From: Candidatus Yonathbacteria bacterium RIFOXYD1_FULL_52_36
GTDB lineage: Bacteria; Patescibacteriota; Minisyncoccia; Phycocordibacterales; UBA1539_B
Length of the DNA stretch: 27,907 nucleotides
NCBI GenBank assembly: GCA_001823605.1
Contig: MHUZ01000021.1
Location: 1-27,907 of the forward strand
Direction: 5' to 3'
The notes beneath the pieces are model-generated. The model was not told where the DNA came from and ran no database searches. It worked only from the letters and a program-made list of their open reading frames with translations. How positions within the stretch are numbered: the stretch's first letter is position 1; each line of letters starts with the position of its first letter. Of the stretch, positions 8,104 through 24,807 are shown in pieces. Made by a program: the position numbers and the translations under genes.

Positions 8104-8175
8104 GGCGTGGTGGCGAAGTGGTAACGCTTCGGTCTGCAAAACCGACACGCGCGGGTTCGATTCCCGCCCACGCCT
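8104..8175 (+). tRNA. tRNA-Cys (GCA). No encoded CCA.
   Basis: Acceptor GGCGTGG pairs with CCACGCC. Anticodon stem TCGGT/ACCGA with loop CTGCAAA. T arm GCGGG-TTCGATT-CCCGC. Discriminator T. The following bases are CTA. Confidence 0.88.
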
Positions 8176-8203
8176 CTAGAAAAAGTGCTAGAATACTCAT
8201 CAC

Positions 8204-8286
8204 GCCGGGGTGATGAAATGGTAGACATAGGAGACTTAAAATCTCCAGGGCGCAAGCCCGTGTGGGTTCGAGTCCCACCCTCGGCA
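8204..8286 (+). tRNA. tRNA-Leu (TAA), type II. No encoded CCA.
   Basis: Acceptor GCCGGGG pairs with CCTCGGC. Anticodon stem GGAGA/TCTCC with loop CTTAAAA. Long variable arm GGGCGCAAGCCCGT. T arm GTGGG-TTCGAGT-CCCAC. Discriminator A. Confidence 0.88.
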
Positions 8287-8307
8287 CTAAAGTAAATCTA
8301 AAAAGTT

Positions 8308-9510
8308 ATGGCATTTAATAAAGAGCCGTCACAACAACAGACACCAGGAGAATTAAAGATAACCGAATATGCCAACAGAGTAACGGCCGGGGAGCCACTC
8401 GACTCAATTCTTGATGGTCTGCCGCCTGGAATGAGGCAAGTGGTCGAAGCCCGTGTGAATGCTCAAGGCGAAGATCCAACTGAGAAGCCGGCGGAAAGCC
8501 AACCTGACCACGCCTTGAGATTGCCTCCTCAATACGCAGGCTTGCCATCAGAAATTGTGGAAGACCTTTGGATAATTCCGGTGTATGTCGATCCTGAAAA
8601 GACACAGAGTGAACTAAAGAAAAAGGAGGCGGTTCTTAATGCCCTACGACACAAAGAAAGAGCGGGGGCTGTGTCCGAAGAGAATGAAGCGCTTAAATGG
8701 GCAGATGATACGGCAAGAATTTCAGAAATAAGAGAGCAAATCGGTATTCCTACTCCTGAACAAGGAATAACCTCATTTGAACAACTTGGGGCCATAGAGT
8801 CGATGAGCGTCGAAGAATTTGCCGTGTATCTGGCAGCAGAGGCAAAAAAACAAGGAAAGGAGCTTGCGGGAAAGACCGCGTATGAGGCACTCACGGCACG
8901 CCCTGAGTGCCGTGAATTAAGAATTTCATCGGCATTCGGAAACTCAGACGCCCTAATGGAGGTGTTCCACAAAAATGGAGAAGCTATCCGAAAATTCAAA
9001 GAAGACACTGCATCAAAAGTTACAGCGGTCGATGGTGTAGAGTATGTTCCAGGTGCTTGGGATCATTACAAAATCCAATATGAACAGCGGGAACGGGAGG
9101 AGACACACAAAGGGTATATTACAATTAATAAAGATCAAATCCTTACTGAATTTACGCCAGATGTGCGCCACGAGATCGTAAAAAAACTTCGTGACGGTGG
9201 GTACCGTGGTCAAGTGAAATTCCCCGTGCTCGGCTCTAGGGCGCTCTTAAGCTACGACAACATTGTCCTTCACGGAAATGAGCTGGCTGATGTGGATCGT
9301 GGCATAGAAATAGTCCAGAATGTTTTAAATGAGGTCCGCCTGAACCATGAAGCTCCAAGGCGCGGGGTAGATGCGGCGGGAGTAGATGGCAAAAAAACCA
9401 GCTATACTGATCGAATTGCCCAGCTAGTCACGCAAGCAAGCAAAGATCCAAGCATTGATCTTGAAACAGAGATCAAAAGATTGAAGGAGCCCGAACACGC
9501 TCGAGAATGA
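8308..9510 (+). CDS. Hypothetical protein of 400 aa with atypical composition. Likely horizontally acquired.
   Basis: Long uninterrupted ORF that begins 22 nt after tRNA-Leu. GC is visibly lower than the flanks: one 60-nt sample is 40% against more than 55% around it. Codon usage is A-rich, with AGA/AGG Arg and AAA/GAA runs. The N terminus is an E/P/Q-rich, likely disordered region. No confident family was recognised. Confidence 0.7.
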   Translation: MAFNKEPSQQQTPGELKITEYANRVTAGEPLDSILDGLPPGMRQVVEARVNAQGEDPTEKPAESQPDHALRLPPQYAGLPSEIVEDLWIIPVYVDPEKTQSELKKKEAVLNALRHKERAGAVSEENEALKWADDTARISEIREQIGIPTPEQGITSFEQLGAIESMSVEEFAVYLAAEAKKQGKELAGKTAYEALTARPECRELRISSAFGNSDALMEVFHKNGEAIRKFKEDTASKVTAVDGVEYVPGAWDHYKIQYEQREREETHKGYITINKDQILTEFTPDVRHEIVKKLRDGGYRGQVKFPVLGSRALLSYDNIVLHGNELADVDRGIEIVQNVLNEVRLNHEAPRRGVDAAGVDGKKTSYTDRIAQLVTQASKDPSIDLETEIKRLKEPEHARE

Positions 9511-10035: not shown

Positions 10036-10111
10036 TGGTCCGCCCGGTAGGAATCGAACCTACGACCGTTTGCTTAAGAGGCAACTGCTCTACCGACTGA
10101 GCTACGGGCGG
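10036..10111 (-). tRNA. tRNA-Lys (CTT) with genomically encoded CCA
   Basis: The reverse complement is CCGCCCG-TA-GCTCAGTCGGTAGAGC-A-GTTGC-CTCTTAA-GCAAA-CGGTC-GTAGG-TTCGATT-CCTAC-CGGGCGG-A-CCA. There is one non-Watson-Crick pair at positions 27:43. Confidence 0.82.
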
Positions 10112-10125
10112 ATATTCAACCCATA

Positions 10126-10386
10126 CTACCAGAGAGCGCCTTCTGCTTCAAGGCGTTTCCGTTTTTGTGCCGATCCCCTATTATACCCACCCACGGAACC
10201 ATCCGCTCGCACTACGCGATGGCACGGGATCGCCGGGTCGTAATTAGTGGTGAGGATATTCCCCACCGCGCGATACGCACGCGGACTTCCCGCGCGACGT
10301 GCCACTTCAGCATAGGTCATCGTCTTGCCTTTGGGAATCGTGCGGACCACGCTGAATACTTTGTCTCGAAATACAATCCTCTCCAT
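10126..10386 (-). CDS. Single-domain MGMT-family protein (methylated-DNA-protein-cysteine methyltransferase DNA-binding / acceptor domain only)
   Basis: The PCHRVV motif is IPCHRVVRADGSVGGY, followed by the helix-turn-helix TYAEVARRAGSPRAYRAVGN. The start was trimmed to ATG 10384-10386 (MERIVFRD...). The protein is 86 aa. Confidence 0.8.
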   Translation of the reverse strand: MERIVFRDKVFSVVRTIPKGKTMTYAEVARRAGSPRAYRAVGNILTTNYDPAIPCHRVVRADGSVGGYNRGSAQKRKRLEAEGALW

Positions 10387-10407
10387 TACACTGACTGTAC
10401 CACAACG

Positions 10408-10436
10408 TTGGTGATTCACTAAAAATGCGCTAGAAT
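10408..10436 (+). promoter_or_regulatory. Sigma70-like promoter for the tRNA-Leu pair
   Basis: TTGGTG, a 17-nt spacer and TAGAAT, located 42 nt upstream of tRNA-Leu(TAG). Confidence 0.45.
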
Positions 10437-10478
10437 CCTAGAACACCAAGAGGGATAGGTGCTGCGGTGAAACGAAGC

Positions 10479-10560
10479 GCCGAGGTGGCGAAATTGGTAT
10501 ACGCACTTGCCTTAGGAGCAAGCGGGGCAACCCATGGAGGTTCAAGTCCTCTCCTCGGCA
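10479..10560 (+). tRNA. tRNA-Leu (TAG), type II. No encoded CCA.
   Basis: Acceptor GCCGAGG pairs with CCTCGGC. Anticodon stem CTTGC/GCAAG with loop CTTAGGA. Long variable arm. T arm GGAGG-TTCAAGT-CCTCT. Discriminator A. Confidence 0.85.
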
Positions 10561-10577
10561 CAAAAAAGGAACCAAGC

Positions 10578-10662
10578 GGGCGTGTGGCGGAATTGGTATA
10601 CGCGTACGTCTCAGAAGCGTATGGAGTAATCCTTGGGAGTTCGAGTCTCCCCACGCCCACCA
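10578..10662 (+). tRNA. tRNA-Leu (CAG), type II, with encoded CCA
   Basis: Acceptor GGGCGTG pairs with CACGCCC. Anticodon stem TACGT/GCGTA with loop CTCAGAA. Variable arm TGGAGTAATCCTT. T arm GGGAG-TTCGAGT-CTCCC. The 3' end is A-CCA. Confidence 0.82.
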
Positions 10663-10806: not shown

Positions 10807-11994
10807 ATGGACACTCAGCAACAAACGCCTTCGGTGGTCATACGTACAGGGATGTATTGGACGTTCGTCATCATATACCTCGTCCTTATGCTCACTGTCG
10901 TTATCGTTATCCGCTTCTCCACGGGTCCTGGTGTTGAACACTTTGGTCTTCAGTGGAGCTGGAGCGGTCTTGCAACAATCCTCGCACTCCTCCATATATT
11001 CGCCTCGATCAAAACCCGATCAGTAGACGAACACGTTGGTGTTACGATCTTTGAAATGCCTGTGCTGGAAAAAAGGAGCCCTGGTCCGTTTCTTGCTCCG
11101 TATTTCCCAGGCATGGTGAAGGTATGGCGGATCACCCAAAATGTTCTCCAAAACCAATTCCCTGGAGAGCCTGAGCAGATCGAGTGGCGCGATGAAAAGG
11201 AAGTTTTGAATGAACTCAAAGACGGAAAACTCCCCGATGGAAAGGTGTGGCCGATCCGAGTTCCTACCGGTCCTGCACGTGAAGGAGATCGTGGCAACGG
11301 TTTGAAGTGGAGCAATGATGACCCGTTCAACGTGCAGATGGTCATCTCTGCTTCGTTCTACACTCGCTATCGCGTTAAAAACCTGTTTCAGTTCCTCATG
11401 GTCGTTGGTGGTGATACCGAAAAAGAGGCGTTGGAACGTGTCGTTAAACAACTTCGTGACAGCGGCGAGCGCGTACTGCTCAATGAGCTTAGCAGCCGTA
11501 ACCTCGCGCTGGTCATCGAAGAGACCAGCAAAATCAATCAATCCATGAAGGATGCCTTCGACAAACTAACGGAAACATGGGGTGCTGACATTGTGGAGGT
11601 CGGCGTACTCATGCCCAGTCCGGGACATGAGTTCAACATGGCGGTCCGCGAGATCGGCCAGACAAAGGCAAGGGCGCAACAAACGCGTATCACTGCCGCT
11701 GCAGAGGAGTATAGGCTTACCCAAGAAGGCACCGGCCGAGGAAACGCAAACGAGCAGGAGATTGCCGGTCGCATCCGCGGCCTAACAGAAGCTAACAAAG
11801 CTGGCATTGATCCTGTTGTCATCATAGCGGCAACCGCTGCTCAAGATATTGCAAAGAACGCCAACTATGCCTACTTCGGAGAACTTGGTGGTCTAGGCGG
11901 CATCACTGATGCTATCGCAAAAACCTTAAAGCAGGGCGGGAGCAATACTCAAAAACCCTCACCCGCATCAACTACAGGAGGTGAATCGCAATGA
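10807..11994 (+). CDS. SPFH/band-7 (stomatin/flotillin-like) membrane protein
   Basis: N-terminal TM helices, then an SPFH core (NVQMVISASFYTRYRV..., ALERVVKQLRDSGERVLLNELSSRNLALVIEETSKINQS...) and a coiled-coil A/E/Q-rich tail. The SD GAGGAG is present. Confidence 0.8.
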   Translation: MDTQQQTPSVVIRTGMYWTFVIIYLVLMLTVVIVIRFSTGPGVEHFGLQWSWSGLATILALLHIFASIKTRSVDEHVGVTIFEMPVLEKRSPGPFLAPYFPGMVKVWRITQNVLQNQFPGEPEQIEWRDEKEVLNELKDGKLPDGKVWPIRVPTGPAREGDRGNGLKWSNDDPFNVQMVISASFYTRYRVKNLFQFLMVVGGDTEKEALERVVKQLRDSGERVLLNELSSRNLALVIEETSKINQSMKDAFDKLTETWGADIVEVGVLMPSPGHEFNMAVREIGQTKARAQQTRITAAAEEYRLTQEGTGRGNANEQEIAGRIRGLTEANKAGIDPVVIIAATAAQDIAKNANYAYFGELGGLGGITDAIAKTLKQGGSNTQKPSPASTTGGESQ

Positions 11995-12713
11995 GTGGTC
12001 CATTGGTACTTCTCATCATCATGGCAGTACTTGCTCTCGTAGGCCAAATGCTTGGAAACCGCACACAGAGAAACATGCCTCTGTGTGAAGAAAGCGTACC
12101 CCCATGCGAACTCCCCGCCCCTGTGCGAAGGGGGCGGTGGTACCGATTCAGGCAATGGACAAGGGGGCTTTGGGACAGTTCCGAATCGTCAGCCACTTTG
12201 ACAATTCTTGGTCTTTGGGCGCTGGTGATGGGAGCACTGTATTTTTTCTGGCCTGATCAGTTCAAGCAATTCTGGAACTGGCGTGACCACATGGTGTTCC
12301 TGGGGCTTCCTCTTCTTTTGGTGATTATTGTTCAGGCGCTCGACAGGCCAACAAGAACACCTGCAACCAAATGGATCGGCGGAGTGCTGCTCACGACACT
12401 CATCGTGATCTACATCATCGTAGTGGCCGAGCAGTTTGGTATGTCATTCAACGGCACGGAGGAGGTTGCGGGGAGGACACTTCGGATTCCCGCTGGAGAA
12501 ACACGGTGGGTTGAGTTCGAGTTCGGCAAAACAGTGACCTATCACTGCTCTACGGATGGAAACATCCTTATCGCCGAGCAAGGATTGCCTGTTCCTTGCG
12601 GACCGAATGCACAGCGAGCAGACCTAGAGCCAACGGTCGACCCGCAAACAGGAACACTTTCTGTCGGGTTCCTTGCACCGGAAAACAGTGAAATGATAGT
12701 TCTTCTTTGGTAG
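11991..12713 (+). CDS. Polytopic membrane protein translationally coupled to the SPFH gene. Possibly an NfeD-like partner.
   Basis: Its ATG overlaps the SPFH stop as ATGA. There are about 4 predicted TM helices and a C-terminal beta-rich soluble domain (TLRIPAGETRWVEFEFGKTVTYH...). The NfeD assignment is inferred only from the typical SPFH-NfeD gene pairing. Confidence 0.6.
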   Translation: MSGPLVLLIIMAVLALVGQMLGNRTQRNMPLCEESVPPCELPAPVRRGRWYRFRQWTRGLWDSSESSATLTILGLWALVMGALYFFWPDQFKQFWNWRDHMVFLGLPLLLVIIVQALDRPTRTPATKWIGGVLLTTLIVIYIIVVAEQFGMSFNGTEEVAGRTLRIPAGETRWVEFEFGKTVTYHCSTDGNILIAEQGLPVPCGPNAQRADLEPTVDPQTGTLSVGFLAPENSEMIVLLW

Positions 12714-12731
12714 GCACAACGCCTGCCACCA

Positions 12732-12762
12732 AAGGCGCCACCACCCGTGGCGCCTTTTTTCT
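12732..12762 (+). terminator. Intrinsic terminator for the SPFH operon
   Basis: Stem GGCGCCAC / GTGGCGCC with CACCC loop, followed by TTTTTTCTTTT. Confidence 0.8.
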
Positions 12763-12780
12763 TTTCGTATCTGAACGCAA

Positions 12781-12803
12781 AATCGCCCCTAAGGGGCGAT
12801 TTT
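12781..12803 (-). terminator. Intrinsic terminator closing the minus-strand pilin-like operon (usable in both directions)
   Basis: Stem ATCGCCCC / GGGGCGAT with TAA loop. It is flanked by AAAA on the plus side and TTTTG on the other. It lies 23 nt downstream on the minus strand of the last gene in the array, whose stop is at 12826. Confidence 0.7.
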
Positions 12804-12825
12804 GCAAATCTACACTCTAGAATAC

Positions 12826-13083
12826 TTAGTATGGTCTTGGGACACCAACGACATTTGCAATGACGTTGATGATCACATACACAAGAAGCATGATCGACAT
12901 ACCAACGACTCCCCAGATCATGTGTCGCTTCCCATCTTCGCGACTCGTGTCGTCATCAAACCCTTTTACGAATTTGAGCACGCCCCACACAAAATAGAGC
13001 ACTGCGGCAGATGAGATAAGTACGATGAACGGATTGAGAATCTCTCGCGAGATCGAAGAGATAAGCTGACCTAGAGGATCCAT
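12826..13083 (-). CDS. Small two-TM protein, paralogue A of the VirB2/TrbC-like 'T4SS-pilin-like' family. Core only, with no signal peptide.
   Basis: Shared core: AAVLYFVWGVLKFVKGFDDDTSREDGKRHMIWGVVGMSIMLLVYVIINV. It lies 9 nt downstream of paralogue B. The start is taken as ATG 13081-13083. The track starts at a TTG at 13086. Confidence 0.65.
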   Translation of the reverse strand: MDPLGQLISSISREILNPFIVLISSAAVLYFVWGVLKFVKGFDDDTSREDGKRHMIWGVVGMSIMLLVYVIINVIANVVGVPRPY

Positions 13084-13095
13084 CAAAGAGTACGC

Positions 13096-13482
13096 TTAGC
13101 GAGTACGGTTGTTGATCGGGAGATCTGGCGCAGATCCTGTTGTTCCACGTCCACCGACCGTTCGAATCAAAATTCCCACCAATGCCCATACGCTCACCAT
13201 AATAGCGATCGCCACAATGCTGTGGACGATCATACTGCGAGCTTCTTTACGAGCTTCTTCGTCACCTGAATTCAAAACAAACTTTGCCAATCCCCAGAGG
13301 AAATACACCACCGCGAGTGAAACAAAGAGTGAAGCGAGGAGGTTCAAAATAGTACCGACGAACGCAAAGACATCTCCCGCGTCTGCTTGTGTACCAATGG
13401 TAAGTGGTCCCGTCGCAAATACTGCCACAGGAAGCATCGCCACGAGGATCCATGCTGAGATCTTTATTGCTGTAGAACGCAT
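13096..13482 (-). CDS. Small two-TM protein, paralogue B, with an N-terminal signal peptide
   Basis: Signal peptide MRSTAIKISAWILVAMLPVAVFA. Core: VVYFLWGLAKFVLNSGDEEARKEARSMIVHSIVAIAIMVSVWALVGIL. The alternative upstream start at 13527 is encoded by AT-rich, promoter-like sequence. Confidence 0.65.
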   Translation of the reverse strand: MRSTAIKISAWILVAMLPVAVFATGPLTIGTQADAGDVFAFVGTILNLLASLFVSLAVVYFLWGLAKFVLNSGDEEARKEARSMIVHSIVAIAIMVSVWALVGILIRTVGGRGTTGSAPDLPINNRTR

Positions 13483-13590
13483 AACGTAATTAAAAATGCT
13501 TTTATAAATAAAATTGATGATCGACACAACCTATCCTCTAGTATACGGCACACCTGGACAACCCGCAATCATACCTGTGGATAGCACCGT

Positions 13591-13935
13591 TTACGAAAGC
13601 GTGCGTACCACGATCCCCACAAATGCCCAAAAGGCGGCAATGACCGCAAGAGCGACGATTCCCCAAATCATCCGTTCCCTGCCCTCAGTGCGCCCGTCAG
13701 ACTCTGCAGAATTGCGTATATACTGCACGGCACCCCAGAGAAAATAGACAATGGTGGCAGCAAAAAGAATACTCACCAAAGGACCGATGATCTGACCGAC
13801 CACATACTGCACCAATGTCCTAAAGTCAGTAAAGTGCTCTGACACATATACCCCTTCCGCCGAAAGAACGAGCGGAGCAAATAATCCAAATGCCCCAAGG
13901 ACACTGCCGATGTTTCTTTGAACCCTAGTATGCAT
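13591..13935 (-). CDS. Small two-TM protein, paralogue C, with an N-terminal signal peptide
   Basis: Signal peptide MHTRVQRNIGSVLGAFGLFAPLVLSAEG. Core: TIVYFLWGAVQYIRNSAESDGRTEGRERMIWGIVALAVIAAFWAFVGIV. A GAGAGA SD sits 9 nt upstream. Confidence 0.7.
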   Translation of the reverse strand: MHTRVQRNIGSVLGAFGLFAPLVLSAEGVYVSEHFTDFRTLVQYVVGQIIGPLVSILFAATIVYFLWGAVQYIRNSAESDGRTEGRERMIWGIVALAVIAAFWAFVGIVVRTLS

Positions 13936-13951
13936 ATATTTATCTCTCTAT

Positions 13952-14419
13952 CTAGATCCTTTGGATCGTCCCCGCAATCGCCGTTGCCAACGCCCAAGCG
14001 CCGAGTACGATCGCCGCGCCAATAATCGTACCAAAAAATGTTTTCTTGGCATCTTCAAGTTTCTTAGTGTCTCCTCCTGCAGTCACAAAAAGAAATCCGG
14101 AGTAAATAAGCATCACCGCTATGACCGGCATCAAGATCCGCACAATCGCTTCAAGGACTTTGTGTAAAAGCTCCATGAGGCTGTTGTAGGGTGTCGGGTT
14201 CGGAAACCTGATTGTCTCCCCAGATCCTGCCACTGGCTGAACATTGGTAGTTCGAGGTGCCTGCGGCGTGATTGTACCCTGTCCCGCGGGTGGCTGTGGC
14301 GTAATGGTCCCTTGGGCATACACAACACCCCCCGGCACCGCAACAAGAACCATGCTGACCAACAGCGAACATACTGCTATGCCACCTGCGATGTACGTAT
14401 ATAGTGATTTCATGCTCAT
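13952..14419 (-). CDS. VirB2/TrbC-like pilin-like protein, paralogue D, with a signal peptide and a Pro/Thr-rich tandem repeat
   Basis: Signal peptide MSMKSLYTYIAGGIAVCSLLVSMVLVAVPGGVVYAQG. Tandem 11-mer GTITPQPPAGQ / GTITPQAPRTT. Core IAVMLIYSGFLFVTAGGDTKKLEDAKKTFFGTIIGAAIVLGAWALATAIAG. This IYGGF..T.GG...K...AKK...A.IG..IV..A pattern was recalled from memory as a CPR pilin-like family signature. Confidence 0.75.
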   Translation of the reverse strand: MSMKSLYTYIAGGIAVCSLLVSMVLVAVPGGVVYAQGTITPQPPAGQGTITPQAPRTTNVQPVAGSGETIRFPNPTPYNSLMELLHKVLEAIVRILMPVIAVMLIYSGFLFVTAGGDTKKLEDAKKTFFGTIIGAAIVLGAWALATAIAGTIQRI

Positions 14420-14425
14420 AGATTA

Positions 14426-14806
14426 TTACCCGACAGATCTAAACGGTTCTTCGAACAGGACCGTCATGACAAACTTTACGATCACCCACGCACCAAATGC
14501 CACCACTAACCCGATCGCGGCCCACAGAAAAGCATCTTTCGCATTTTGACGTGCCGTGTCGCTCCCCCCATGGATCATCAACTGAAACCCCGCATAGGCA
14601 AACGCAACCGCCGCAAGGGGAAGTGCTAACCCGTACAACAAAAAATCAACGATGTTGCGCGCCAGTTGCATAAGTTGTGTCCAGCCACATCCCGACCCTT
14701 CACATGCCGGCACGATCGCCGTCGGCGCAGTCGCGTACACAAGTACCGGAACAAAGCTTACCACGACCGCGCTTGTGCGTGCTGCATAGTCTTGAAACAT
14801 ACTCAT
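14426..14806 (-). CDS. VirB2/TrbC-like pilin-like protein, paralogue E
   Basis: Signal-like hydrophobic N terminus followed by CEGSGCGW. Core AVAFAYAGFQLMIHGGSDTARQNAKDAFLWAAIGLVVAFGAWVIVKFV. It starts 2 nt after the stop of the upstream SBP gene and ends 6 nt before D. Confidence 0.72.
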   Translation of the reverse strand: MSMFQDYAARTSAVVVSFVPVLVYATAPTAIVPACEGSGCGWTQLMQLARNIVDFLLYGLALPLAAVAFAYAGFQLMIHGGSDTARQNAKDAFLWAAIGLVVAFGAWVIVKFVMTVLFEEPFRSVG

Positions 14807-14808
14807 AG

Positions 14809-16152
14809 TTACGGCATTGATCGTTTAATACTCTCACTCAGTCGTCCATCGAGCACCGTGATCGAATCTTTCGCGTCACGTCGTGCCGAGAGCACATCTT
14901 CAATCGCCGACTGGAACGCACTTTTTGTGCTCGCCGCGTCTGGATCGACAAACCCGCGCGCAATAAGCGCTCCTCGATACACAACCTCTTTGAACGGATC
15001 ACTCTGCTCTACGGAAAGCATGTCTCGGCGGACAGGAGCAATGCCAAGCGCATCAGAAAATGCCTGAGAGAACTCCCTGCTTCCAAAAAGCCCCGCAATA
15101 TATGATCCGCCAGAAGGATTTGCCCCCGCCTTAAGTACGCCTGCCGCATATAACGTGCCGAACGTTGCCGATCTTCCCGGATCCTCAGTCTTCACTTTTG
15201 CTTGTGGTAACGGCGCCATATCAAAATTGAGATGTGGATTCTTCTGGGTGATAACTGCGTACTCGCTCGCGAACCCAAAGTAGGTTGCCAAGTCCCCCTG
15301 TGCAAAAAAATCACGTGAGACGGGAAGCGCCCGACTCCATGAATATTCTCCGCGAGTCGGGTCAGCAAATCGCGTATAGAAACGAAGTGCGGCTATAGCA
15401 GGAGAACTCGCCGACTGTACATCGCGCGCGATCACACTCTTAAGTGTTTGCGCGGCTTCTGCTCCTTCAAACATCGTGATCGCATTTCCGGTCTGCAAGA
15501 TAAGCGTGGCCAGGATCTCTTTTGCGTGGAGCACATTCTCAGACTGCCCCAACGCGATCCCGCTCTGTGCGATCGCCCCCTGTGTGGTTCCACGTTTCGT
15601 GAGTTGCACCATCGGTTCAACGTAAAACTCAGTCCACGATTGAGGCGGGTTTGCGATTCCTTCCGCAGAAAACAGGTCGCGGTTCCAATACATCACCAGC
15701 GGGTCAACCGCGATCGGCATCCCGATCATTCCCTGCGGGTAGACTAGGAGCTCAACCTCTTCAATAAATGTATTCTTGAGGTCGCGCAACGCCATCGAGA
15801 ATGGCACGAGCCGATCACGATGACGATACATTCCATCGTGCGTGAATATGACCGCATCAGGAGCACGATTTGAAGCAAGCGCTTCAGTAAGATCCGCATC
15901 AAGCGTATCGGGATCTTTTTGTACATATGCCATTCGCACTGTCTCGATCCCTGGAAATGCTTCGTTAAAGGCACTGGTAACGACCCGTTCATCAACCGTT
16001 CCCCACACCGTCACTGTGCCGTAGTTCTGCTTCGCTTTGCTCCCCCATGGCGAAGGGATAATGTCGGCGAACATAAGAAAGCCCAACATGCCGAAAAGTG
16101 CGGCTCCCATCATCAACCCTACCTGAAAAATATTCGTGCTTTTTTCTTGCAT
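14809..16152 (-). CDS. Membrane-anchored extracellular solute-binding protein (ABC-type family-1, MalE-like). No transporter partners are in the window.
   Basis: N-terminal TM helix. Family-1 SBP hallmarks are VTVWGTVDE...AFPGIETV...APDAVIF and YPQGMIGMPIAVDPLVMYWNRDLFSAEGIANPPQSWTEF. The protein is 447 aa. Confidence 0.75.
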   Translation of the reverse strand: MQEKSTNIFQVGLMMGAALFGMLGFLMFADIIPSPWGSKAKQNYGTVTVWGTVDERVVTSAFNEAFPGIETVRMAYVQKDPDTLDADLTEALASNRAPDAVIFTHDGMYRHRDRLVPFSMALRDLKNTFIEEVELLVYPQGMIGMPIAVDPLVMYWNRDLFSAEGIANPPQSWTEFYVEPMVQLTKRGTTQGAIAQSGIALGQSENVLHAKEILATLILQTGNAITMFEGAEAAQTLKSVIARDVQSASSPAIAALRFYTRFADPTRGEYSWSRALPVSRDFFAQGDLATYFGFASEYAVITQKNPHLNFDMAPLPQAKVKTEDPGRSATFGTLYAAGVLKAGANPSGGSYIAGLFGSREFSQAFSDALGIAPVRRDMLSVEQSDPFKEVVYRGALIARGFVDPDAASTKSAFQSAIEDVLSARRDAKDSITVLDGRLSESIKRSMP

Positions 16153-16155
16153 ACG

Positions 16156-16704
16156 TTATCCGGTGTTCTTCTTCATAACAATACCATAATGGTGCGCACC
16201 GGCATCAAAGAGCGGTTTTTCATATCGAAACCGCTCGCCTTCAAAAATACGCCGTGCCTCATCGGCACGCACGAGCTGTCGTACGGTTGGTCCTGCGCCG
16301 CCAAACGAGCCTGACCAGTCGATCACGATCGCTTTACCGCCATTCTTGAGTACGCGCCACGCTTCCCGTGCAATACCGGCTCGATCCGGTGCCTGGAACA
16401 ATACGTTGGCAACTAGCACGAGATCGACGGACGCATTACGAAGCTTGGTTCCTCCTTCGCGTTCGATATCACCCCACACCACTTCCACATTCCCCTTGCG
16501 CGACTCGCGCGCTTTGAGGCTCAGTGTAGCAACAAGATCTTTTTGTACTTCAACCGCATAGACCTTGCCTGTGTCTCCCGCGGCTTCCGCAAGTGCCAGC
16601 GTGTACATTCCCGAGCCGGCACCAAAGTCCGCGACCTGCATTCCCTCCGTCACGGAAGCCTCCTTAACTACTTTTTTGGGATCAGAAAATTCACTCATTA
16701 TCAT
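16156..16704 (-). CDS. Class I SAM-dependent methyltransferase, small and soluble
   Basis: Motif I VADFGAGSGMYT. An acidic post-I residue (AVEV). Motifs II/III are VDLVLVANVLFQ ... LKNGGKAIVID. The first ATG at 16704 is embedded in the -10 element. A second ATG at 16698 is the probable leaderless start. Confidence 0.78.
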   Translation of the reverse strand: MIMSEFSDPKKVVKEASVTEGMQVADFGAGSGMYTLALAEAAGDTGKVYAVEVQKDLVATLSLKARESRKGNVEVVWGDIEREGGTKLRNASVDLVLVANVLFQAPDRAGIAREAWRVLKNGGKAIVIDWSGSFGGAGPTVRQLVRADEARRIFEGERFRYEKPLFDAGAHHYGIVMKKNTG

Positions 16705-16745
16705 TATAGTATACCCCGCGTTCGCACAATGTACGAACGCGGGGT
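16698..16745 (-). promoter_or_regulatory. Promoter of the MTase-SBP-pilin-like operon, overlapped by a 31-nt near-perfect palindrome (candidate operator)
   Basis: Minus-strand reading is ...ACATTGTGCGAACGCGGGGTATACTATAATGATAATG. The -10 element is TATACT/TATAAT and abuts the start codons. The palindrome CCCCGCGTTCGCACAATGTACGAACGCGGGG (16714-16744) covers the -35 region. Confidence 0.5.
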
Positions 16746-16746
16746 T

Positions 16747-16771
16747 GGGGAAAACACCCTTAAAAAGGGTG
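16747..16771 (-). terminator. Intrinsic terminator of gyrA
   Basis: Minus-strand reading is CACCCTT-TTT-AAGGGTG followed by TTTTCCCC. It lies 60 nt downstream of the gyrA stop. Confidence 0.7.
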
Positions 16772-16830
16772 CGCTCAAAGCGCGGCGAACGCCCAGAACT
16801 GGATGAGAAGCGCGGGATTTCACGCGTCGC

Positions 16831-19299
16831 TTAGAGGCACACCAGCGAGGCAATCGAATCCCCCTCGCGCAATTTCATAATCCGCACGCCCTGCGTCTGT
16901 CGGCCAAGTGCGGGGATGCTCTTAGTTTCTACGCGGATGACTTGGCTCTTCTTTGATATTGAAACAACTTCTTCGTCGAGAGACGTGATCACCTTCGCCG
17001 CCATGAGCGCGCCGGTCTTTGCGGTTACCTTAAACGTCTTGATGCCCGAACCGCCGCGACCCTGAATCTTGTACTCTTTCATCGGGGTCTTCTTGCCGTA
17101 GCCATTCTCGCTCATCACTAAAAGTTCCGGATTCTCCGCGGCAGCCGAAACCACATCCGCGCCGATCAGACTGTCGCCTTTGCCGATCTTGAGAGCGCGC
17201 ACACCGCCCGCCGCACGCCCCATCTCGCGCACATCGGATTCTTTAAATCGAATTGATTGCCCCTTTGCCGTAGCAAGCACCACACTGTCTCCCTTACCAC
17301 AGAGACGCGCCGAAAGCAGTTCATCACCCGGAGCAAGCTTGATTGCCATGAGACCGCTCCTGCGTACATCCGCAAAACCCTGCGCAGAAACTTTCTTCAC
17401 CACACCCTGTTTTGTGACCATCATGAGTGATGCCTGTGCTTGCACACCCTTTACCGCCTTAGGTACTGAAAGGATCGAGGTGACATTCTCATCCGCAGAA
17501 AGCGAGAGGAAGTTCATCACCGACTTGCCGCGCGTTGCACGCTTCCCTTCAGGGATATCGTACATTTTGATCTGATATGCCTTGCCTTTATCGCTAAAGA
17601 AGAGCAGGTCGCTGTGCGTGGACGCAGAAAGGAATATTGTAATAAAATCTTCTTCTTTGGTATTGAGGTCCATCACGCCCACCCCGCCGCGATTTTGTTT
17701 GCGGTACTCGCTCGGGTTTGTGCGCTTCACATATCCTCCGCTCGTGAACACCAAGATCGATTCTTCGTCGGGGATCGTGTCCTCAAGAGAGATCGCCTTA
17801 GCGCCACCCTTCACGATGCGCGTGCGGCGATCGTTGCCATATTTCTCCTTCGCCTCGAGAAGTTCTGTCTTCACCACACCCAAGATCTTTTTCTCGCTTG
17901 CGAGAAGTTCCTTCAACTCTTTGATGAGCTTGCGCTTCTCTTCGAGTTCGGTCTCCACCTGCTTACGCTCAAGACCGGCAAGTTTCTGGAGGCGCATTTC
18001 CAAGATAGCCGTCGCTTGGCGATCGGAGAACTTGAACTCTTTCATCAAATTGAGGTGCGCAGTCGGCGTGTCTTTTGACGCCTTGATCACCTTAATGATC
18101 TGGTCAATATGATCGAGGGCTTTCTTCAACCCTTCCAAAATGTGTGCGCGCTCCTCTGCGCGCGTAAGGTCATACTGCGTACGGCGACGCACGACGATCT
18201 GGCGGTGCGCCAAAAATTCTACAAGGATCTGCTTGAGCGAGAGCGTCTGAGGAACACCATCCACCAATGCGAGCATGTTGTAGTGGAACATCGTCTCAAG
18301 CGTGGTGTGCTTGTAGAGGTAGTTCAGCACGTTCTGCGGATGGGCACCTGATTTAAGGTCGATCACTACACGGATCTCTTTTGTTGATTCATCGCGAAGT
18401 CCTTTGATGCCCTCGATCTTCTTCTCGCGCACCAGCTCAGCGATCTGCATGATGAGGTCGGACTTGTTTACGCGGAATGGGATCGAGGTGATGAGGATCT
18501 GACTGCCGTTCTTGCCATCCACGATATCCACCTCGCCGCGCGTCACCACACCACCGCGTCCGGATGAATATGCGTGATGAATGTCTTTCTCGTTAAACAC
18601 CAAACCGCCGGTCGGAAAATCGGGACCCTTCACGAACTTCAACAGATCTTCGTTCGTGGCATCTTTGTCGTCAGCTAGATAAGAACAGGCATCGACAAGC
18701 TCGCCCAAGTTGTGGGGAGGAATGTTCGTTGCCATACCGACGGCGATACCCAGCGTTCCGTTCAAAAGAAGGTTGGGCACCCCTGCCGGAAGCACGATCG
18801 GTTCCTTGCGGGTGTTGTCGTAGTTGCCACGGAAGTCAACTGTTTCTTTATCAAGATCACGGAGCAGTTCGCTGGCGATGCGGGACATCTTTGCCTCGGT
18901 GTAACGCATGGCTGCCGGAGGGTCGCCGTCGATCGAACCGAAGTTACCCTGACCGAAGACGAGCGGGTAGCGTGTCACGAAATCTTGACCGAGCTTCACC
19001 ATTGCGTCGTACACAGACGAGTCGCCGTGCGGGTGGTATTTTCCGAGCACGTCTCCAACTACTGCCGCCGACTTGCGGAATTTTGCGGTGTGCGCGAGTC
19101 CCATCTCCCCCATCGCGAAAAGAATGCGGCGGTGCACCGGCTTGAGCCCATCGCGCACGTCAGGCAACGCACGACTCGCAATGACGGACATTGCGTAGTC
19201 GAGATACGATTCTTTCATCTCCGCGCTGATCTCAACAGAGATGACGCCCTCGTGAGGCGCCTTTGGTTCTTCGTGCTGTTCCTGCTCCCGTTTCTTCAT
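16831..19299 (-). CDS. gyrA: DNA gyrase subunit A
   Basis: Motifs [17 protein letters not shown] and the [23 protein letters not shown] (Ser/Asp are the wild-type positions). C-terminal beta-pinwheel repeats are present. The protein is 822 aa. The SD AAGAGGAA sits 6 nt upstream. Confidence 0.95.
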
Positions 19300-22955: not shown

Positions 22956-24734
22956 TCAATTTGCACGGATCTTTACCGATGCCGTACGGAGCGTCACGCC
23001 ACTCAGATCCTTTGCCACGAACGTGACCGTGTACTCCCCGCTTGAACGCCACTTCCAATTCCTCACGCTCACCAGAGCCTCTTTGTTCAATGAGTCCGCA
23101 CTATCGCGCATAGCGTTAAGCGTTCCACCATCCACTTTCCAATACATTGTGTACTGCGGAAGCGTGTACCCGCCAAGCGACGCCTTAAATGTTTGCGTGT
23201 CTGAAAGCGTCGCCCCGTTCGTCGGCGCAACGATCGTAATAGTGCCCGGAGTCGCCGCAGGACCGACCGAAAGCGTTGCCACATTATTCCTCCACGTATA
23301 GAGCCTCGACCAATTACTGGCAAACGCACCCATTTTCAGTGTGTACGAACCATTACTTGCGGGTGTCCAGTCAAGTGAATACTGTTTTGTTTCCCCCGCT
23401 GCAAAATTCTGCCCCGAGAAATATCGCTGAAACACCTTGCGCCCCTGACCGTCGTAGATCTCGTAATCAATGATCGCATTCGAGACCGCAGTATCGCTCT
23501 GTGCGGATACGCCAAGCGTTGCCCTTTGTCCTGCCGTAAGTGTTCCCGCGGCAACGAGCGCTGCCGAAAATGTCGCGGTCTGTGGTTCTGGCGGGGGCGG
23601 TGGCGGCGTTTCGCCATTGATCGTGCCAAACCACTGGCGCATCACCTCTTCAGCAGGTTTGTTCTGCGGTGTGTAATCTTTGTTCCCTGTTCCGCCAGCA
23701 TCGGGGTAACTTATCCAATTCCACAAGTACACTCCCCGCATATACGAGGAGGTTCCCCAGTAACTCAAAAGCGCCTCGTAGAGCCGCGCCTGAAGCTCAG
23801 CATTGTACGGCGCATCGGTCCACGATTCATAGGGTTTCATGTTGGCCCCGTTGACACTACGGTATCCCACTTCGCTGAAGATGATTGGTTTGTTGTATTG
23901 GTTATAAAATGGCTGCAAGTGAGTATCATTGAGTTGGTCCCACGCTGACACAAATGAAGCGACCGAGTTCTGTGAATCACCCGGAAGACTGAAGTATGCC
24001 GAGATGCTTATGAAATCCACCGATGGCCAAAACCCGACATATGCCTTTTCATTGCTGATCCAATCATTGGGATCAGGATACGAGGAATTCGCCTCGTAGG
24101 TAACGTTGCCGGAATATACCCCGCGCACACGATTGATAAGCGCGACCCAGCGATCGGTCTGTCCATTGTTTTTGTTCGCGAGCGTTACCATTTCGGTACC
24201 GATCGAAAAGTTCTCCGCACCGTTTGTCTGTGCAAGGGTTGCAATGCGCACCAAAAGGTCCCCATAGGTTTGGAACCACGCCGCTTTATCATTTGGATTG
24301 ATCCTTCCGCGCCAATCATGGGTAAGCGGTTCCGCGTGCACCTTCACGGTTACTTGCAGTCCGATCGAGCGCGCATACCGGATCGCTTCCGCAAGTGATG
24401 CGTCAGTCGGCGTACCGGTGCCAGTACGATAAATATCACTTGAGGTGATCGATGTCTGATAGTACGTTGCAACGAGCCCTACATGGGTTGCGCCCGTTGC
24501 TTTGAGATCGCGCAATGACGCCTTGAATGATTCACTCGCATAATCAGTCGAGGAGCGCGCTACGATGCTCGCCCCTTTGTGCCACCCCGTCACCGCCGCA
24601 TCGGCTTTGGGTGTCGGCGCAATCACTGGTGCGAACGACATCCCCACCACTGAAAACAACATAAGAAAAGAGATTGCACGATGACCAATGCCTCTTGCAT
24701 AAAAATTCATCACATATTTTTTTGTCTTTGTCAT
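22956..24734 (-). CDS. Secreted glycoside hydrolase (clan GH-A-like TIM barrel) with a poly-Pro linker and two C-terminal beta-sandwich domains
   Basis: Signal peptide MTKTKKYVMNFYARGIGHRAISFLMLFSVVGMSFAPVIA. Candidate catalytic glutamates lie in FSIGTEMV and IIFSEVGY (acid/base and nucleophile of retaining TIM-barrel hydrolases). PPPPPPEP linker. Two Ig/CBM-like domains follow. The start was chosen at ATG 24732-24734. Alternatives are 24788 (track) and 24710. Confidence 0.7.
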   Translation of the reverse strand: MTKTKKYVMNFYARGIGHRAISFLMLFSVVGMSFAPVIAPTPKADAAVTGWHKGASIVARSSTDYASESFKASLRDLKATGATHVGLVATYYQTSITSSDIYRTGTGTPTDASLAEAIRYARSIGLQVTVKVHAEPLTHDWRGRINPNDKAAWFQTYGDLLVRIATLAQTNGAENFSIGTEMVTLANKNNGQTDRWVALINRVRGVYSGNVTYEANSSYPDPNDWISNEKAYVGFWPSVDFISISAYFSLPGDSQNSVASFVSAWDQLNDTHLQPFYNQYNKPIIFSEVGYRSVNGANMKPYESWTDAPYNAELQARLYEALLSYWGTSSYMRGVYLWNWISYPDAGGTGNKDYTPQNKPAEEVMRQWFGTINGETPPPPPPEPQTATFSAALVAAGTLTAGQRATLGVSAQSDTAVSNAIIDYEIYDGQGRKVFQRYFSGQNFAAGETKQYSLDWTPASNGSYTLKMGAFASNWSRLYTWRNNVATLSVGPAATPGTITIVAPTNGATLSDTQTFKASLGGYTLPQYTMYWKVDGGTLNAMRDSADSLNKEALVSVRNWKWRSSGEYTVTFVAKDLSGVTLRTASVKIRAN

Positions 24735-24807
24735 GGTGAAATTAATTAAAAGTGAGTAGTGCACGATGAGCATACCTATAGTAAACACCTTGTCTCATTA
24801 ACCTCGC

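Follow-up and report, generated by a model that had tools for sequence, protein, structure and literature searches.

Our best reading of a seven-gene operon in Candidatus Yonathbacteria bacterium RIFOXYD1_FULL_52_36 is that it represents an unreported conserved surface module, in which genes for a class I S-adenosylmethionine (SAM)-dependent methyltransferase (MTase) and a MalE-like solute-binding protein (SBP) precede a series of VirB2-type pilin genes. The operon lies in the window, i.e. the whole 27,907-nt stretch of contig MHUZ01000021.1 analysed here, in which the list of open reading frames (ORFs) shows seven tightly packed minus-strand genes downstream of gyrA (16831-19299) and ending at 12826. 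The MTase gene (16156-16704) is separated from the SBP gene (14809-16152) by 3 nt, and the five pilin genes that follow are preceded by 2, 6, 16, 63 and 9 nt, respectively; the ORFs and the 3-nt and 2-nt spacers on either side of the SBP gene are exactly as claimed in an earlier description made from the DNA letters alone (hereafter the sequence-only reading). We give about an even chance to the proposal that a VirB2-type surface assembly has the SBP attached to it as a ligand receptor, the MTase being an accessory enzyme. What we infer in this proposal concerns function, namely the ligand, the localisation and the physical interaction of the SBP, and the target of the MTase.

Hundreds of SBP homologues were recovered at 35-68% identity, and all source names that identify an organism belong to Parcubacteria/Paceibacteria-type members of the candidate phyla radiation (CPR). 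In a scan of one genome per species, at least 595 species encode a relative; the neighbourhood counts given here rest on the best 80 loci of these, which were scanned with hidden Markov models (HMMs) built from the window and three relatives. The order gyrA, MTase, SBP and one to seven pilin genes, all on one strand, was observed in essentially every locus, with breaks only at contig ends. The MTase gene is directly upstream of the SBP gene in 81 of the 82 loci having upstream sequence, locus L043 being the exception, and the next gene after the SBP gene is a pilin gene in each of the 79 loci where the downstream ORF could be read. Spacing within the unit is tight: the gap between MTase and SBP genes has a median of 10 nt (n = 79; maximum 229 nt), 14 loci showing a 4-nt overlap, and the gap between the SBP gene and the first pilin gene has a median of 5 nt (n = 79), 76 of these gaps being of 100 nt or less. 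By contrast, the gyrA-MTase junction (median 165 nt, n = 69) exceeds 300 nt in 23 of 69 loci, with insertions of up to 2.5 kb. A search from the MTase side recovered the triad in three further lineages (Lloydbacteria, Vogelbacteria and one other), and in the Lloydbacteria contig (L087) a transporter of the MFS family and a transposase replace gyrA upstream. Because the gyrA junction is broken in this way and the genes downstream of the pilin array vary between loci, we consider MTase-SBP-pilins to be the conserved core and gyrA merely a frequent neighbour. The synteny of MTase, SBP and pilin-like array thus holds in all 80 sampled species loci as far as the contigs reach, and the genetic coupling of the SBP to pilus-like subunits that the sequence-only reading had put forward is real, ancient and very widespread.

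Pfam profiles identify the small proteins encoded downstream of the SBP gene. All five match PF18895 (T4SS_pilin) with 34-48 bits against a cutoff of 26.6, and the first also scores above the PF04956 cutoff, which makes them TrbC/VirB2-type two-helix pilins and not type IV pilins. A weak resemblance to the "Mbov_0395 pilin-like conjugal transfer protein" of a Mycoplasma integrative and conjugative element was also noted. In the class consensuses, a signal peptide precedes two hydrophobic helices linked by a charged loop, class 5 being devoid of the signal peptide. In the window, class 1 (14426-14806, minus strand, 126 aa; PF18895 1e-12, PF04956 7e-8) combines a signal peptide with a conserved Cys pair (PC..G....C.F) and a TrbC/VirB2-type hairpin. 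Class 2 (13952-14419, minus strand, 155 aa; PF18895 6e-10) has a signal peptide, a Thr/Pro/Gln-rich low-complexity repeat, an NPxxY motif and the hairpin IYSGFLFV..G. Classes 3 (13591-13935, minus strand, 114 aa; PF18895 2e-8) and 4 (13096-13527, minus strand, 143 aa as the longest ORF, with a signal peptide; PF18895 2e-8) carry an FLWG...WGLV-type hairpin, and class 5 (12826-13086, minus strand, 86 aa; PF18895 1.5e-8), the last gene of the operon, consists of the hairpin only, with a conserved HM.WG motif. At the level of class consensus, classes 3 to 5 have in common FLWG, a D/E-R-EGK loop and WGLV.

Since classifying five-member arrays with five position-specific HMMs would be circular, we relied instead on an all-against-all best-hit comparison. 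In 37 independent five-member arrays, the best cross-species match of a pilin occupied the same array position in 83% of cases overall, against 20% expected by chance, with rates of 94, 99.8, 45, 80 and 98% for positions 1 to 5. Six- and seven-member arrays are collinear with this order (123445, 123345 and 1234445), reflecting local duplications of classes 3 and 4. Judged from these sequence comparisons, the five paralogues are ancient orthologous classes kept in a fixed order, as would fit a heteromeric assembly of fixed composition. It is at odds with the proposal that VirB2 arrays of Patescibacteria in general reflect antigenic or host-range variation (PMC12102498). In some species the first-position pilin reaches 476-737 aa and carries, N-terminal to the hairpin, an fn3-like (Pur_ac_phosph_N/fn3) or a Peptidase_S8 subtilase domain (L038 9329-11542, 737 aa; L079 7395-8825, 476 aa; L013 4722-6347, 541 aa). 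These fusions to large domains indicate that the hairpin can anchor or polymerise while displaying extracellular domains, and suggest that the first subunit, at the least, does not make up the bulk of a fibre.

Two further observations on the small proteins deserve mention. Residues 36-53 of the class 2 pilin (approximately 14261-14314, minus strand) form a tandem QGTITPQ(P/A)P repeat between signal peptide and hairpin, and relatives carry other low-complexity repeats at the same site, e.g. NTSGNTIT in L001; the region may be an exposed or glycosylated linker. In another CPR bacterium (L090, 8001-8396), a lone T4SS_pilin gene lies on the opposite strand in a ribosomal-protein operon, between L16 and S3, which shows that VirB2-like genes also occur singly, without an SBP gene. 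A word-based search beyond Paceibacteria started from the first pilin gave 8 matches, a low number that we attribute to the fast divergence of the pilins.

The SBP (447 aa, minus strand) is of the family 1, CUT1-type. It matches SBP_bac_8 (5e-12) and SBP_bac_1 (9e-10) at 46.6 and 39.4 bits, above the respective curated cutoffs of 27 and 26. Its AlphaFold2 model (pLDDT of 90.1) comprises a helix at residues 8-28, a poorly ordered linker at approximately 29-45 and a confidently predicted two-lobe domain at 46-445. Foldseek matched it with a probability of 1.00, TM-scores of 0.6-0.67 and 15-19% identity to Atu4361 (which binds sucrose or maltotriose), MalE, the mannotriose binder CpMnBP1 and a cyclodextrin-binding protein, and the best profile match in the PDB was CpMnBP1 (4r9f, 3e-19). 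Among 83 family members, 64 positions are at least 90% conserved, 17 of them aromatic. In a profile alignment, D106, D150, E212 and S296/Y298 of the SBP align with D65, E111, E153 and W230/W232 of MalE, so that ligand residues of MalE fall on conserved positions; in the E. coli MalE sequence used here, 11 known ligand residues fell at the correct numbering. Given the fold matches and the conserved residues at pocket-equivalent positions of MalE, a functional binding cleft is plausible, most likely for a carbohydrate.

The N-terminal transmembrane (TM) anchor that the sequence-only reading had assigned to the SBP corresponds to the membrane helix at residues 8-28 of the model. A lipoprotein anchor was ruled out, the N-terminus containing neither a Cys nor a lipobox, and no good signal-peptidase site was found in it. 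A class III (type IV pilin-like) signal of the sort borne by archaeal bindosome SBPs was also rejected: there is no Gly at position −1, which is variable (the commonest residue being K, 21%), and Leu instead of Glu at +5, F9 being conserved at 93%. Conservation within the helix is concentrated at F9 (93%), Q10 (81%), F17 (87%), G24 (80%) and F28 (98%), and by helical-wheel arithmetic these five residues fall within a 100-degree arc. Since the conserved residues share one helical face, the sequence suggests a retained anchor that touches a specific membrane partner.

These elements can be assembled into a mechanism in which the SBP would serve a VirB2-type surface or membrane assembly by recognising its ligand, and would not be the receptor of a classical ABC (ATP-binding cassette) importer. 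The uncleaved N-terminal helix would keep the SBP in the membrane, positioned about 17 residues above the bilayer, and the conserved helix face (F9, Q10, F17, G24, F28) would pack on a membrane partner, most simply the co-expressed hairpin subunits. The latter would be polymerising or anchoring modules with their N-termini outside the cell, as the fn3-like and subtilase fusions of the first subunit lead us to suppose. The SBP would bind a sugar or oligosaccharide on, or released from, the host surface, and binding would guide attachment, or else feed or gate the apparatus related to type IV secretion systems (T4SS) that most Patescibacteria encode elsewhere. The MTase would be a co-translated accessory enzyme acting from the cytoplasm, with putative targets being an operon product, modified before export or else at its N-terminus or cytoplasmic loop, or a lipid or small molecule used by the assembly.

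The transporter context of the SBP gene bears directly on this proposal. The sequence-only reading had noted that no ABC permease or ATPase gene lies in or beside the operon, and indeed Pfam scans of the main ORFs in the 27.9-kb window revealed none. The search for such partners covered the window and the ±8-kb flanks of the 80 loci; in these flanks, no ORF carries the EAA-type permease motif, and the sole ABC ATPase adjoins an ABC-2 exporter permease. Ten of 40 multi-TM ORFs from the flanks were scanned with Pfam, eight being AI-2E, MFS, MurJ or AcrB proteins and two matching no significant family. Members of this SBP family bear JGI names that use the definition of K02027, the multiple-sugar SBP. 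Published counts agree with an orphan SBP: Patescibacteria average 3 ± 3 ABC transporter proteins and yet "retain" K02027 (PMC7137472), and among 49 single-cell genomes of Antarctic Patescibacteria, the source table lists K02027 in 16 and the permease K02025 in 1, with no row for K02026 (PMC12361377). Both studies read K02027 as a sugar transporter. None of K02025, K02026 and K02027 was found in one supplementary file of PMC7137472, and the description of Minisyncoccus and a paper on a subterranean estuary held nothing relevant on transporters.

Several observations weigh against a receptor role within a pilin-based assembly. Upstream of the unit, a block made of lactamase_B_3, a small ORF and gyrA is also syntenic in approximately 55 of the 80 loci, which means that gene order is conservative in this group and that adjacency alone overstates functional linkage. 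The triad has its own exceptions: in L043 (1258-5079) the MTase gene is missing, gyrA abuts the SBP gene and seven pilin genes follow, and in L018 (5809-7326) a single pilin gene is followed by that of an AI-2E transporter. Neither virB4 nor virB6 turned up in the scanned ORFs of the window. As to the MTase, its likeness is to small-molecule MTases and not to known protein MTases, and the short linker of approximately 17 residues holds the SBP at the membrane, an arrangement that fits docking to a transporter at least as well as adhesion. Finally, a distant CUT1 permease and ATPase may be encoded elsewhere in these genomes, and one of the single-cell genomes does carry K02025 (PMC12361377).

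What we regard as the main rival, rather unlikely in our estimation, is an ordinary importer, in which the SBP is a CUT1 receptor with a distant or shared permease and ATPase, and its adjacency to pilins reflects nothing beyond the co-expression of exported envelope proteins. Orphan SBP genes whose products use distant permeases occur in monoderm bacteria, MalE-like sugar binders typically show such a fold and such pocket positions, and the short membrane tether would suit docking to a permease; published reconstructions likewise take K02027 as sugar uptake. Yet no partner was detected in the window or within ±8 kb of the 80 loci, K02025 and K02026 occur in 1 and 0 of the 49 single-cell genomes as opposed to 16 for K02027, and neither the invariant, translationally coupled position between MTase and pilin genes nor the conserved anchor face would be expected of a free-standing SBP. 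Coupling is also what counts against a very improbable explanation, that of synteny without shared function, in which unrelated genes are frozen in a slowly rearranging, streamlined region downstream of gyrA. The wide conservation of the upstream lactamase_B_3-small ORF-gyrA block and the MTase, which has no recognisable link to envelope biology, speak for such a freeze. Nonetheless, rearrangements are found on both sides of the triad (insertions between gyrA and the MTase gene, loss of gyrA in L087, variation downstream) and none inside it, and the overlap of stop and start codons (−4 nt) in many loci indicates translational coupling.

The same evidence of coupling (the conserved unit, its gaps and the pilin order) could also be accommodated by a new form of SBP-dependent uptake, an idea that we consider improbable. 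Here, the five two-helix proteins would form a channel, or an importing conduit derived from a relaxase-less T4SS, in place of an ABC permease; the SBP would pass a host-derived sugar or glycan to this five-hairpin conduit, which would be energised by the T4SS encoded elsewhere and tuned by the MTase. VirB2-like Ced pili import DNA in archaea, and ten TM helices in fixed stoichiometric classes, with an SBP held close to the membrane, are compatible with such a conduit. Moreover, Patescibacteria possess T4SS without relaxase and coupling proteins that are suspected to function "in an alternative capacity" (PMC12102498, PMC10633639). Against this stand the lack of a known precedent for a family-1 SBP feeding a VirB2-type structure, the absence of an energising component from the operon, and the signal peptides and large N-terminal extracellular fusions, which resemble surface display more than a channel. 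The receptor-assembly proposal remains the one that we favour.

Tandem VirB2-like genes as such are not new in this group. In Patescibacteria, 441 arrays of 2-11 such genes have been described (PMC12102498, PMC10633639), an essential series of pilin genes lies inside the T4SS cluster of Ca. Southlakia epibionticum (PMC10633639), and VirB4 is present in 2,417 of 3,035 genomes (PMC12102498). The likeness is clear: divergent PF18895/PF04956 two-helix genes in tandem, with approximately 25% identity between paralogues, in monoderm CPR bacteria. However, those arrays are located inside or near a virB4 cluster and their diversity is ascribed to host-range or antigenic variation, whereas the array reported here lies away from any T4SS gene of the window, is headed by MTase and SBP genes, and keeps its stable orthologous classes in one fixed order, a feature that speaks for a heteromeric assembly. 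No T4SS gene (virB4, virB6 or others) was found among the scanned window ORFs or among the called genes of nine other loci (L001-L006 and L087-L089). An SBP is mentioned in neither PMC10633639 nor PMC12102498, and the latter does not mention gyrA or an MTase with such arrays; in the full-text literature on Parcubacteria SBPs and pilins and on PF18895, we found no published description of an MTase-SBP-pilin operon.

Comparison with other binding proteins delimits what is unusual about this one. It shares with MalE/CUT1 SBPs (E. coli MalE, CpMnBP1 4r9f and Atu4361 4qsd) the two-lobe fold, the Pfam families and the pocket-equivalent acidic and aromatic residues, and it differs from them by its 15-19% identity to solved structures, by the lack of an adjacent permease and ATPase, and by a TM anchor with a conserved face instead of a lipobox or cleaved signal peptide. 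SBPs also serve as sensors for type IV secretion: in the ChvE-VirA system of Agrobacterium and in PrgZ/TraC of enterococcal pheromone plasmids, ligand binding by the SBP controls or serves a T4SS beyond nutrition. ChvE (family 2) and PrgZ (OppA-like, family 5) nevertheless use ABC permeases, and neither is encoded in a pilin operon. The fimU-pilVWXY1E minor-pilin operon offers a parallel in its ordered, differentiated subunits accompanied by a large non-pilin ligand binder, PilY1; the pilin superfamily and the assembly machinery are different, which makes this an analogy only. A cytoplasmic SAM-dependent MTase encoded beside an exported filament subunit, which it modifies, is exemplified by FliB, the flagellin lysine MTase of Salmonella, with no sequence or family relationship implied. 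The bindosome (Bas) of Sulfolobus, which with ChvE-VirA, PrgZ and the PilY1 operon is among the nearest functional analogies, has surface sugar-binding proteins whose functional display relies on small pilin-like proteins encoded with an assembly system (PMC3047682). Those SBPs have class III signal peptides and are still ABC-coupled, whereas here that signature is absent and the hairpin subunits belong to the VirB2 type.

Paceibacteria count among the most abundant of uncultured bacteria, and the module would bear on the way in which they recognise their hosts and acquire nutrients. At present, K02027 is taken to indicate ABC sugar import (PMC7137472, PMC12361377); if the SBP is an orphan tied to VirB2-like subunits, those metabolic reconstructions would need revising, and a defined, near-universal seven-gene module would become available for studies of host recognition. 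That five ancient classes keep a fixed order speaks against antigenic variation, at least in this array, and in favour of a heteromeric structure, one amenable to expression, purification and imaging. Should the uptake conduit prove right instead, it would represent a new class of binding-protein-dependent uptake or host-tapping machine.

The MTase that opens the unit is a predicted cytoplasmic protein of 182 aa (minus strand). It matches Methyltransf_11/25/31 with E-values of 1e-13 to 2e-15 (Methyltransf_11, 1.8e-15), possesses the SAM-binding GxGxG motif within an invariant DFGAGSG, and has an AlphaFold2 model (pLDDT of 93.6) with a Rossmann-like class I fold. Translation may start at a second ATG at 16698, which would give a protein of 180 aa, a length in keeping with its homologues (mostly 175-180 aa). 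The closest known structure is 3dh0, an uncharacterised Aquifex protein (profile 9e-30; TM-score 0.86, root-mean-square deviation 1.9 Å), followed by a Sulfolobus "type 11" MTase, and the further structural neighbours are mostly small-molecule MTases, together with tRNA m1A58 enzymes. No NCBIfam model for a named subfamily (UbiE/MenG, ArsM, PCMT, PrmA, KsgA and others) scored above its cutoff, the best being ArsM with 61.6 bits against 263 and the others falling far under theirs; naming the subfamily through NCBIfam, PDB sequence or fold searches thus led to nothing beyond 3dh0 and generic small-molecule MTases. At comparable depth the MTase is better conserved than the SBP (47-53% versus 35-40% identity). 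Since it has no export signal, it should act in the cytoplasm, and its modifying an operon product, as the sequence-only reading had speculated, is an attractive idea.

The boundaries of the operon are marked by RNA hairpins. In the 126-nt gyrA-MTase spacer, a hairpin at 16750-16776 (minus strand) with a CACCCUU/AAGGGUG core followed by UUUU (z = −6.7 relative to shuffled sequences for the fold of 16700-16835) is probably the gyrA terminator, in which case the operon below would have its own start; a separate terminator-like match lies nearby at 16771-16792. A perfect palindrome with a 15-bp stem (CCCCGCGTTCGTACA...; 16713-16745, minus strand) immediately precedes a TATACTATAAT box overlapping the annotated MTase ATG, and could be an operator, a second terminator or part of a leaderless-mRNA arrangement. 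Directly after the last pilin gene, a strong hairpin with a U tract, GCAAAAUCGCCCC-UUA-GGGGCGAUUUUGC (12777-12805, minus strand; z = −6.4 for the region), forms the intrinsic terminator of the operon, its U tract being partly inside the stem, and a second hairpin at 12731-12757 serves the convergent operon. The earlier claim that internal terminators are lacking needs some qualification: three weak terminator-like matches do lie inside the operon, while the total of 8 matches is not above the 5.1 ± 2.6 of shuffled sequences. With hairpins at its boundaries and internal matches that are weak and no commoner than in shuffled DNA, co-transcription of 16704-12826 is likely. Matches in a sigma-70 promoter scan were not above chance, and no riboswitch or other known RNA was detected in the spacers, all Rfam matches being tRNAs.

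The other window genes with Pfam matches are mostly housekeeping ones (ClpB, superoxide dismutase, a cysteine-desulfurase-like aminotransferase, IF-2, RbfA, MscL, S1, a GH113 hydrolase, Pth, a signal peptidase and HisRS). The GH113 glycoside hydrolase (22956-24788, minus strand, 610 aa) has a Wzt_C-like carbohydrate-binding domain and is encoded 6 kb upstream; the best PDB sequence match of the SBP being a manno-oligosaccharide binder (4r9f), a link between the two comes to mind, but any such link is weak, as the matching stretch of the close relative L001 contains no gene annotated as GH113. A pair of plus-strand genes (10807-12713), which converges with the pilin operon and shares its terminator region, encodes an SPFH/Band_7 protein (395 aa) and a 240-aa protein with four TM segments, the start of which is overlapped by the Band_7 gene. 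A Band_7 gene followed by one for a protein of approximately 240-380 aa without Pfam match recurs downstream of the array in L087 (10098-11877) and L089 (11048-12924), and jackhmmer found Band_7 homologues in 12 other loci. Between two small tRNA clusters, at 8104-8287 (Cys-GCA, Leu-TAA) and 10036-10662 (Lys-CTT, Leu-TAG, Leu-CAG), lie the MscL gene and an ORF of 400 aa (8308-9510) that matches no family.

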